A DNA stretch of 13,347 nucleotides from a virus (lineage: Duplodnaviria > Heunggongvirae > Uroviricota > Caudoviricetes), in IMG/VR virus record IMGVR_UViG_2713896781_000005; one strand, written 5' to 3'. The notes beneath the pieces were generated by a model. That model was not told the origin of the DNA, did no database searches, and saw only the letters and a list, made by a program, of their open reading frames with translations. Position numbers and translations under genes: made by a program. Positions 11,764 to 12,822 of the stretch are shown piece by piece. Each line of letters opens with the position of its first letter. Positions within the stretch are counted from its first letter, which is position 1.

Positions 11764-12822
11764 ATGTTTAATACTGTAAAAATATCCAGTTGTGAGTTAA
11801 TCAACGCCGACTGCCTGGAATTTATCCGGTCGTTACCCGAAAATTCTGTTGACCTGATAGTCACGGACCCGCCGTACTTTAAAGTGAAGCCTGAGGGCTG
11901 GGATAACCAGTGGACGGGTGATGAGGATTACCTGAAATGGCTGGACCAGTGTCTGGCGCAGTTCTGGCGGGTGCTGAAACCTGCCGGAAGTCTTTACCTG
12001 TTCTGTGGCCATCGCCTGGCATCTGACATTGAAATCATGATGCGTGAACGCTTCAGTGTGCTGAACCATATTATCTGGGCGAAGCCGTCCGGACGCTGGA
12101 ACGGGTGCAACAAGGAAAGCCTGAGGGCGTATTTCCCCGCCACAGAGCGCATTCTGTTCGCGGAACATTATCAGGGGCCGTATCGTCCGAAAGATGCCGG
12201 GTATGAGGCGAAGGGCAGGGCACTGAAACAGCATGTGATGGCTCCGCTGATTTCTTACTTTCGTGATGCGCGTGCTGCCCTGGGGATAACGGCAAAACAG
12301 ATAGTGGATGCCACAGGAAAGAAAAACATGGTGTCGCACTGGTTTAGTGCCAGTCAGTGGCAGCTACCGAACGAAAGCGATTATCTGAAATTACAGGCGC
12401 TGTTTGCCCGGGTGGCAGAAGAGAAGCATCAGCGCGGTGAACTGGAAAAGCCCCACCACCAGCTGCTGGAGACGTATACTTCACTGAACCGGCAGTATGC
12501 GGAACTGCAGAGTGAATATAAGCATCTGCGGCGGTATTTTGGCGTGACGGCGCAGGTGCCGTACACGGATGTGTGGACGCATAAACCGGTGCAGTACTAT
12601 CCCGGGAAACATCCGTGCGAAAAACCGGCAGAAATGCTGCAGCAGATAATCAGTGCGAGCAGTCGTCCGGGTGACCTGGTTGCAGATTTCTTCATGGGGT
12701 CGGGTTCGACAGTCAAAGCCGCGATGGCGCTGGGGCGTCGTGCAACTGGCGTTGAGCTGGAGACTGAACGTTTTGAGCAGACGGTCAGGGAAGTACAGGA
12801 TTTAGTCAGTCAGAACGGATGA
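11764..12822 (+). CDS. DNA methyltransferase, amino-MTase (N6-adenine or N4-cytosine), beta-class motif order; apparently orphan
   Basis: Motif IV VTDPPYF near the N-terminus and AdoMet-binding motif I DFFMGSGST near the C-terminus; no candidate restriction endonuclease gene on either side in this window. Confidence 0.8.
   Translation: MFNTVKISSCELINADCLEFIRSLPENSVDLIVTDPPYFKVKPEGWDNQWTGDEDYLKWLDQCLAQFWRVLKPAGSLYLFCGHRLASDIEIMMRERFSVLNHIIWAKPSGRWNGCNKESLRAYFPATERILFAEHYQGPYRPKDAGYEAKGRALKQHVMAPLISYFRDARAALGITAKQIVDATGKKNMVSHWFSASQWQLPNESDYLKLQALFARVAEEKHQRGELEKPHHQLLETYTSLNRQYAELQSEYKHLRRYFGVTAQVPYTDVWTHKPVQYYPGKHPCEKPAEMLQQIISASSRPGDLVADFFMGSGSTVKAAMALGRRATGVELETERFEQTVREVQDLVSQNG

Follow-up and report, generated by a model that had tools for sequence, protein, structure and literature searches.

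A putatively non-specific adenine methyltransferase gene of the M.EcoGII family in the late region of a lambdoid Escherichia coli prophage

We analyzed a 13,347-nucleotide stretch of Caudoviricetes DNA (IMG/VR record IMGVR_UViG_2713896781_000005; hereafter the window, whose positions are used throughout), focusing on a predicted DNA methyltransferase gene at positions 11764-12822. An initial annotation, made from the sequence alone, had called this open reading frame a beta-class DPPY amino-methyltransferase on account of two motifs, VTDPPYF and DFFMGSGST, and the reading frame, a Pfam match and the order of the motifs bear this out. The open reading frame listing places the ATG at 11764 and the stop codon at 12820-12822 on the plus strand, with the gene and its motifs arranged as follows:

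11764-12822, plus strand: gene for a predicted M.EcoGII-family beta-class N6-adenine DNA methyltransferase (352 amino acids; RefSeq WP_000483509.1)
11860-11880, plus strand: motif IV, VTDPPYF (residues 33-39), with the catalytic DPPY at residues 35-38 (11866-11877)
12685-12711, plus strand: motif I, DFFMGSGST (residues 308-316), the FxGxG S-adenosylmethionine-binding motif, with FMGSG at residues 310-314

A profile search with this reading frame returned a single Pfam family, N6_N4_Mtase (PF01555; E value 6.7e-44; score 150.9 bits, cut-off 26.7), in a match that spans residues 29-340 and profile positions 1-219 of 221 and is far above chance level. The DPPY motif lies N-terminal to the FxGxG motif, and the enzyme therefore has the beta-class order, with its target-recognition domain placed between motif IV and motif I. 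Relatives with solved structures include the beta-class enzymes RsrI, CcrM (CcrMI), MboIIA and DpnA and, more distantly, N4-cytosine enzymes. An aspartate or asparagine, rather than a serine, before the PPY of motif IV separates N6-adenine from N4-cytosine enzymes, and the DPPY found here falls on the N6-adenine side. A PADLOC match, "MTase_II," names the enzyme class only. Neither the minus-strand open reading frames that overlap the gene nor a 114-amino-acid minus-strand frame at 12874-13218 gained family support in the Pfam search.

The closest characterized enzyme is M.EcoGII, for which we used the machine-read text of Supplementary Table S1 of PMC11551740 as the reference. Three odd spots in that text were taken to be misreads, because all 15 natural cluster members disagree with it there, and were mended (NHHIW to NHIIW, TKVPQ to THKPVQ and GRRRA to GRRA). 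BLASTP gave 325 of 349 identical residues against the sequence as machine-read; against the corrected sequence, the ungapped alignment has 329 of 349 (94.3%). Using the domain and dimer-interface limits given for M.EcoGII in PMC11551740, the differences are distributed as follows:

N-terminal catalytic part: 3 differences
Target-recognition domain, from residue 160 to 237: 6 differences, with 72 of 78 residues identical (92%)
Linker after the target-recognition domain (residues 238-259): 6 differences
C-terminal catalytic part: 5 differences
Dimer interface (residues 97-110 and 116-140): 0 differences

No sequence identical to M.EcoGII was present among the phage records or the sampled cluster members.

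M.EcoGII, a 349-amino-acid enzyme of an O104:H4 prophage, produces N6-methyladenine in any sequence context; the methylated share of adenines exceeds 85% in vivo and is ~99% in vitro, and single-stranded DNA and, to a weaker extent, RNA are substrates as well (Murray et al. 2017, PMC5778455). Its constitutive expression is harmful, and the native lysogen does not express it (PMC5778455). Murray et al. assigned it to "a very large family" found in E. coli prophages, described the enzyme of phage 1720a-02 as "very similar," and reported that M.EcoGI, identical to M.EcoGII at 333 of 349 residues (16 differences), is likewise silent in the host (PMC5778455). Forde et al. listed REBASE homologs at 92-94% as "nonspecific" and inactive in lysogens of O111 E. 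coli that make Shiga toxin (STEC) (PMC6602927, Table 3). Judged by its sequence, the window enzyme is a member of this M.EcoGII/M.EcoGI family, which is already characterized. The earlier statement that neither the methylated base nor the target could be read from the sequence is thus outdated: because of the ~94% identity to M.EcoGII, and because homologs at 92-94% are already labeled nonspecific, both the base (N6-adenine) and the absence of a target sequence can be inferred, and this allele is probably a non-specific N6-adenine methyltransferase as well.

Positions 11200-13347 of the window show 100% identity to an stx-negative lambdoid prophage carried on the chromosomes of E. coli O145:H28 strains RM12761 and RM13516, a match also shown by five other strains. 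A published methylome is available for one of these lysogens: using single-molecule real-time sequencing, Cooper et al. found adenine methylation in RM13516 only at GATC (98.9% of sites) and at 191 unassigned sites (PMC3893438, Table 2). We take the methyltransferase to be silent in this lysogen, because an active non-specific enzyme would be obvious in the methylome. The initial annotation had recommended a comparison with the genome's methylome, and these data show only the Dam GATC mark and none from this enzyme; of the two functions it had suggested, protection against restriction is the one proposed for the family (PMC5778455), while altered host gene expression is unsupported in a lysogen methylated at GATC only. 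The enzyme thus resembles M.EcoGII (EGT69837.1) and M.EcoGI of O104:H4 strain C227-11 in its PF01555 domain, beta-class motif order and length (352 versus 349 amino acids), and in being prophage-encoded, orphan and silent in the lysogen. It differs from M.EcoGII in its C-terminal tail (…DLVSQNG instead of …DLIV) and by 20 substitutions.

These comparisons bear on whether the enzyme might instead be a sequence-specific orphan adenine methyltransferase, similar to Dam or CcrM, that marks one motif and thereby regulates phage or host genes. Twenty residues, six of them in the target-recognition domain, do separate it from M.EcoGII, the specificity of beta-class enzymes can shift with few substitutions, and RefSeq calls it a "site-specific DNA-methyltransferase," although that label is merely generic. 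However, its 94% overall identity and 92% target-recognition-domain identity are to a proven non-specific enzyme, M.EcoGI and M.EcoGII are treated as one kind of enzyme despite lying 16 residues apart, the "nonspecific" label has been given to homologs at 92-94%, and the RM13516 methylome contains no extra motif, all of which makes a sequence-specific activity quite improbable. The Dam-like orphans themselves, such as M.EcoVT2Dam of Stx phages and T4 Dam, are also phage N6-adenine methyltransferases without a cognate nuclease, but they are GATC-specific and belong to another class with a different motif order. In the Stx phages compared here they are encoded in the early/nin region, as is the "DNA adenine methyltransferase" at 340-993 of one extracted locus (L003).

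In the annotation of the RM12761 prophage, integrase, excisionase, exonuclease, regulators, replication genes, hokD, DUF968, RusA and Q are followed by a 65-amino-acid "TrmB family" gene, the methyltransferase gene, a "tRNA-Met," a SASA/NanS-p esterase, holin, lysozyme, Rz, terminase, head and tail genes. The initial annotation had seen no adjacent restriction endonuclease and had named a cognate gene just beyond the sequence as a finding that would overturn its reading. No restriction endonuclease gene lies beside the methyltransferase gene in the window, and the identical RM12761 prophage has none annotated over the 16 kb that flank the gene on each side; the adjacent cognate endonuclease that defines a type II restriction-modification (R-M) system is therefore lacking. 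We also considered whether the enzyme could be the modification half of an R-M system whose nuclease is encoded elsewhere in the prophage, for example by the DUF968/HNH gene two genes upstream of Q. DUF968 matches the PHROG "HNH endonuclease" family phrog_96 (E value 7.1e-78) and, weakly, Pfam HNHc_6, and it lies upstream in most of the sampled loci that carry the methyltransferase. Yet its 9,029 places are spread over 4,463 genomes, K-12 (as ydfU) among them, compared with 3,311 places in 1,991 genomes for the methyltransferase, and phage phiP27 carries the methyltransferase with no DUF968 nearby. DUF968 also has no match among the PADLOC defense models, there is no other nuclease candidate within 16 kb, and the RM13516 lysogen lives without methylation by this enzyme, which an active cognate nuclease would forbid. 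We consider an R-M partnership extremely improbable and, since its distribution is independent of that of the methyltransferase, reject DUF968/HNH as a cognate nuclease. The window contains runs of N (bases masked or undetermined) at 8635-8650 and 9618-9667, the second inside the DUF968 gene, which encodes a single 349-amino-acid protein in the identical RM12761 prophage (13896-14945 of that extracted locus).

The methyltransferase gene had been placed in the late region, between a putative late promoter and a tRNA-like element, and this position holds, with Q and a candidate PR' promoter upstream and the tRNA-like element at 12863-12938 downstream. The following features lie between the start of Q and the methyltransferase gene:

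10507-11202, plus strand: Q antiterminator gene, a 231-amino-acid open reading frame from a GTG (229 amino acids in the PGAP annotation), matching PF06323 (Phage_antiter_Q) with an E value of 2.8e-83
11186-11223, plus strand: candidate late promoter PR', recognized by eye (TTGCAA at 11186-11191, a 17-nucleotide spacer, TATGTT at 11209-11214, and a -10-like TATAAA at 11218-11223)
11273-11291, plus strand: predicted intrinsic terminator 1 (terminator scan), stem GCCGCC-A-GGCGG followed by T7, the positional equivalent of tR'
11415-11612, plus strand: small winged-helix open reading frame, 65 amino acids (phrog_331, E value 9.6e-37; "TrmB family transcriptional regulator" in PGAP)
11599-11622, plus strand: predicted intrinsic terminator 2 (terminator scan), stem GCCTTCAG/CTGAAGGC followed by T6, overlapping the stop codon of the small open reading frame
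11613-11763, plus strand: conserved 151-nucleotide leader, a predicted structured RNA between the small open reading frame and the methyltransferase gene

The RM12761 annotation names the first of these "bacteriophage antitermination protein Q"; a search of solved structures, aimed at locating the Q binding site, found no relatives of this Q. The candidate PR' matches 8 of 12 consensus positions and, the scan threshold being 9, was not reported by the promoter scan; it overlaps the end of Q, where a PR' right after Q is expected (PMC7547250). No sigma-70-like promoter was found by the same scan on the plus strand between Q and the methyltransferase gene, including the region around the small open reading frame and leader. 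Sy et al. mapped tR' in Sakai Sp5 by Term-seq (PMC7547250), and we equate terminator 1 with it by position because ATGTCCG follows the T-run both here and in Sp5. In terminator 2, two stem pairs stay paired through compensatory changes in an Stx2c phage. In Stx phages, PR' is constitutive, its transcripts stop at tR' during lysogeny, and Q permits read-through after induction (PMC7547250). By analogy, Q-dependent late expression of the methyltransferase is well motivated, and we infer it here.

Of 5,426 complete E. coli genomes, 1,991 carry the methyltransferase gene, at 3,311 places and in up to seven copies per genome. The exact protein is found on 999 or more contigs and belongs to a 90% cluster of 5,932 members. 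All 12 extracted copies are intact, and the ratios of nonsynonymous to synonymous substitution rates (dN/dS), at dS values of up to 0.9, are 0.07-0.14 against the window and, across comparisons, 0.07-0.20; the gene is thus under purifying selection, with a dN/dS of about 0.1. The prophage itself may be partly decayed, because its ead/Ea22-like gene (window ~5798-6516) is marked by RefSeq as frameshifted in the RM12761 prophage and its tRNA is dead. A methyltransferase gene that has lost its function and is decaying along with a defective prophage would fit these two signs and the missing stx cassette, and also the lack of any methyltransferase trace in the host methylome and the deletion of the gene from many Stx2a phages. 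Against it stand an intact reading frame with all motifs, a dN/dS of ~0.1 and the occurrence of the identical protein on 999 contigs or more; besides, active M.EcoGII is itself expected to be silent in a lysogen. We think a functionless remnant quite improbable.

The region around the methyltransferase gene matched 358 phage records, many of them Stx-converting phages with the gene in the same slot. In the Stx2a phage Stx2_95 the order is Q, small open reading frame, methyltransferase, three tRNAs, stx2AB, nanS-p and holin. Orthologous methyltransferases occur in Stx2a, Stx2c, Stx2d and Stx2e phages and in 1720a-02 (Stx2_95, Stx2a_1447 and phiP27, where the gene is L24, are examples), in the shared order antiterminator, small open reading frame, 150-nucleotide leader, methyltransferase and tRNAs. 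Protein identity to the window enzyme is 98.6-99.1% for 1720a-02 (98.6%) and Stx2_95 and 87.5% for phiP27. These phages differ in carrying intact ileZ, argN and argO genes and stx after the methyltransferase, whereas in the window prophage the tRNA is fused and dead and stx is missing. The methyltransferase gene, which the initial annotation had described as late-region cargo, is better seen as conserved phage equipment, in a fixed cassette with the small gene upstream of it and in a slot that also houses tRNAs and stx.

Only the last 111 nucleotides of the methyltransferase gene are retained in ~120 of 159 phage records, the Sakai Sp5 copy being 95.5% identical (1815-1925 of the extracted locus). 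It is carried by Stx2a phages of the 933W/Sp5 kind, among them PA8, PA2, phage 86 and those of O104:H4, in which the remnant is joined straight onto the tR' T-run and ATGTCCG. The 933W/Sp5-like lineage therefore lost both the small open reading frame and the methyltransferase by deletion. Some phage records call the 111-nucleotide stub a "DNA methyltransferase."

Together, these data make it probable, in our view, that the gene encodes an M.EcoGII-type non-specific adenine methyltransferase that is silent in the lysogen, is expressed late under the control of Q, and methylates phage DNA before packaging as a defense against restriction. The gene sits in the late operon of the prophage, where the order is Q, PR', a terminator, the small winged-helix gene, a second terminator, the 151-nucleotide leader, the methyltransferase gene, the dead tRNA, small RNA (sRNA) genes, nanS-p and the lysis genes. 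In the lysogen, PR' transcripts would end at the terminators and no enzyme would be made, which would spare the host a toxic genome-wide methylation. Upon induction, Q-modified RNA polymerase would pass both terminators, so that the methyltransferase would be made alongside the lysis and morphogenesis proteins and would heavily methylate replicating phage DNA ahead of packaging. On entering the next host, this DNA would be expected to resist the numerous restriction systems (types I, II and III) that are blocked by adenine methylation. Our own analysis supplied the assignment to the family, the intact state of the gene and the selection on it, the order of the genes, the terminators and the lack of an endonuclease, while the non-specific activity of M.EcoGII and the silence of the identical gene in the RM13516 lysogen come from the literature.

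Several points weigh against this model. The 20 residues that differ from M.EcoGII include six in the target-recognition domain, among them S191 (P in M.EcoGII), and the identity value may be off by a few residues since the reference was machine-read and corrected by hand. Late expression under Q is deduced from gene order and predicted terminators, with a PR' recognized by eye. The anti-restriction benefit is a proposal even for M.EcoGII (PMC5778455), and our literature search found no paper measuring N6-methyladenine in the virion DNA of such phages. Finally, the methyltransferase must be dispensable, because 933W/Sp5-type Stx2a phages deleted the gene and yet spread.

The association of the methyltransferase with its upstream neighbors is close. 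The small open reading frame precedes it in all 12 methyltransferase-bearing loci at a spacing of 150-151 nucleotides, whatever genes flank the pair, and is itself under purifying selection (dN/dS 0.08-0.14 where dS is at least 0.17). Its Pfam matches to TrmB and HTH_24 are weak and below the cut-off. A longer, 106-amino-acid version starting from an ATG at 11292 is disfavored, as the homologous upstream stretch is out of frame in an Stx2c phage. The notion that the small protein is an obligate partner of the methyltransferase is half true: the methyltransferase was never seen alone, but PhiR5_1 has the small open reading frame alone, and the latter occurs at ~1,300 more genomic places than the methyltransferase.

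The leader, 150-151 nucleotides long in all 12 loci, is 90.7-92.1% identical in pairs whose methyltransferase DNA is 81.7-84.2% identical (for example, 92.1% versus 84.2%). Its predicted minimum free energy is -67.6 kcal/mol (z score, -2.71), and 0 of 200 shuffled sequences were as stable. A predicted helix pairs the bases immediately before the methyltransferase ATG, in front of which no Shine-Dalgarno sequence is evident. Covariation support for the leader fold is thin, the consensus fold having one compensatory pair only, outside the terminator, and a search of Rfam at E values of up to 1 returned no match. In the Stx2c phage, the small protein is just 52% identical, while the leader and methyltransferase are conserved.

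These findings raise the tentative and rather doubtful possibility that the methyltransferase is the last part of a fixed cassette (65-amino-acid winged-helix protein, terminator, 150-nucleotide structured leader and methyltransferase) that moves as a unit among lambdoid phages with differing antiterminators, and in which the protein, the leader or both gate or retarget the enzyme. The cassette could delay or limit translation of a toxic enzyme, as R-M controller proteins do, or could steer the enzyme to phage DNA or RNA, as the small protein PNB-2 does for an MT-A70 enzyme (see below). What the data show is a linkage that holds in all 12 loci, a small gene under purifying selection and a leader conserved beyond the coding DNA; any regulation or interaction is putative. 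Directly 3' of the antiterminator gene and before the small open reading frame lies an insertion hotspot, which holds a Ser/Thr kinase and PP2C phosphatase pair in an O6:H16 strain (883-2387 of extracted locus L012), two reverse-strand genes of unknown function in Stx2a_1447 (2830-4393 of L008) and the 409-amino-acid unknown protein L22 in phiP27 (3203-4432 of L007).

A winged-helix gene ahead of the methyltransferase at fixed spacing in 12 of 12 loci also brings to mind an enzyme that in vivo works chiefly on RNA (rRNA, tRNA or late mRNA) and that its small neighbor may direct. M.EcoGII does methylate RNA in vitro (PMC5778455), and a predicted DNA methyltransferase of an Stx phage proved to be a 16S rRNA methyltransferase when bound to a neighboring winged-helix protein (PMC10810198). 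On the other hand, the initial rate of M.EcoGII on RNA is ~100-fold below that on DNA (Supplementary Table S3 of PMC11551740), M.EcoGII alone achieves more than 85% methylation of DNA in vivo (PMC5778455), the PA8 enzyme in question is of another family and is encoded in another part of the phage, and the small open reading frame also occurs without the methyltransferase. RNA as the principal substrate is accordingly a minority view and an outcome we hardly expect.

The PA8 system, M.EcoPA8orf6770P-PNB-2 (Gong et al. 2023, PMC10810198), is similar in that an Stx2a-phage enzyme annotated as a DNA adenine methyltransferase stands beside a small winged-helix gene. It differs in being an MT-A70 rather than a PF01555 enzyme, in its location (gp5, at ~2.4-3.3 kb at the left, early end instead of in the late operon), and in being active in the lysogen and acting on rRNA, and it is not homologous at the level tested. 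We reject an identity of the two enzymes because of the different family and location, but the PA8 case shows that DNA methyltransferase annotations can mislead.

As a member of an already characterized family, the enzyme studied here is routine: M.EcoGII-type enzymes have been characterized and are sold as a reagent, and close STEC homologs are already annotated as non-specific. Its gene is, however, carried by about a third of complete E. coli genomes, the exact allele is found in O145:H28 strains from outbreaks, and its silence in methylomes means that surveys of methylomes will overlook it. If induced lambdoid and Stx phage DNA is indeed hypermethylated, this would bear on the spread of stx-type phages past restriction barriers. 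The only openings are the cassette architecture and the putative anti-restriction role; the small gene and leader offer a modest lead on how a toxic non-specific methyltransferase is controlled.

The Rfam matches of the interval from the PR' candidate to terminator 1 (11212-11293), to isrK (21.9 bits, E value 0.062) and to other short leader-like RNAs, are weak and below the threshold; isrK is an Hfq-binding RNA of Salmonella. By analogy with lambda 6S RNA or StxS, this interval may yield a terminated leader RNA of ~70 nucleotides. We found no match to the StxS sRNA itself, and the Q type here is unlike the 144-amino-acid Q associated with StxS.

Downstream of the methyltransferase gene lie three RNA features:

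12863-12938, plus strand: chimeric, non-functional tRNA, its 5' part ileZ-type (anticodon CAT) and its 3' part argO-type; "tRNA-Met" in PGAP
13048-13256, plus strand: STnc100 sRNA gene (Rfam, 175.6 bits)
13257-13318, minus strand: AgvB anti-GcvB sRNA gene (Rfam, 92.5 bits)

In alignments, the 5' two-thirds of the tRNA is ileZ-type and the 3' end is argO, joined at the common T-arm sequence CTGGTTCGAATCCAG. The acceptor strands (GGCCCTT and ACAACGC) are unpairable, and in the anticodon loop a G stands in place of T at position 33. This fusion explains why ARAGORN reports no tRNA at 12863-12938 and why the Rfam tRNA match there is partial (model positions 7-64 of 71, 37.3 bits). The deletion took out argN together with segments of the tRNAs on either side. 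Homology to the Stx2a phage ends at 12926, inside the chimera, and the stx2AB cassette that Stx2a phages have at this position is absent (12927-13347; compare 6660-8310 of extracted locus L001). In its place are ~80 nucleotides of unrelated sequence (12940-13018), and homology returns at 13019.

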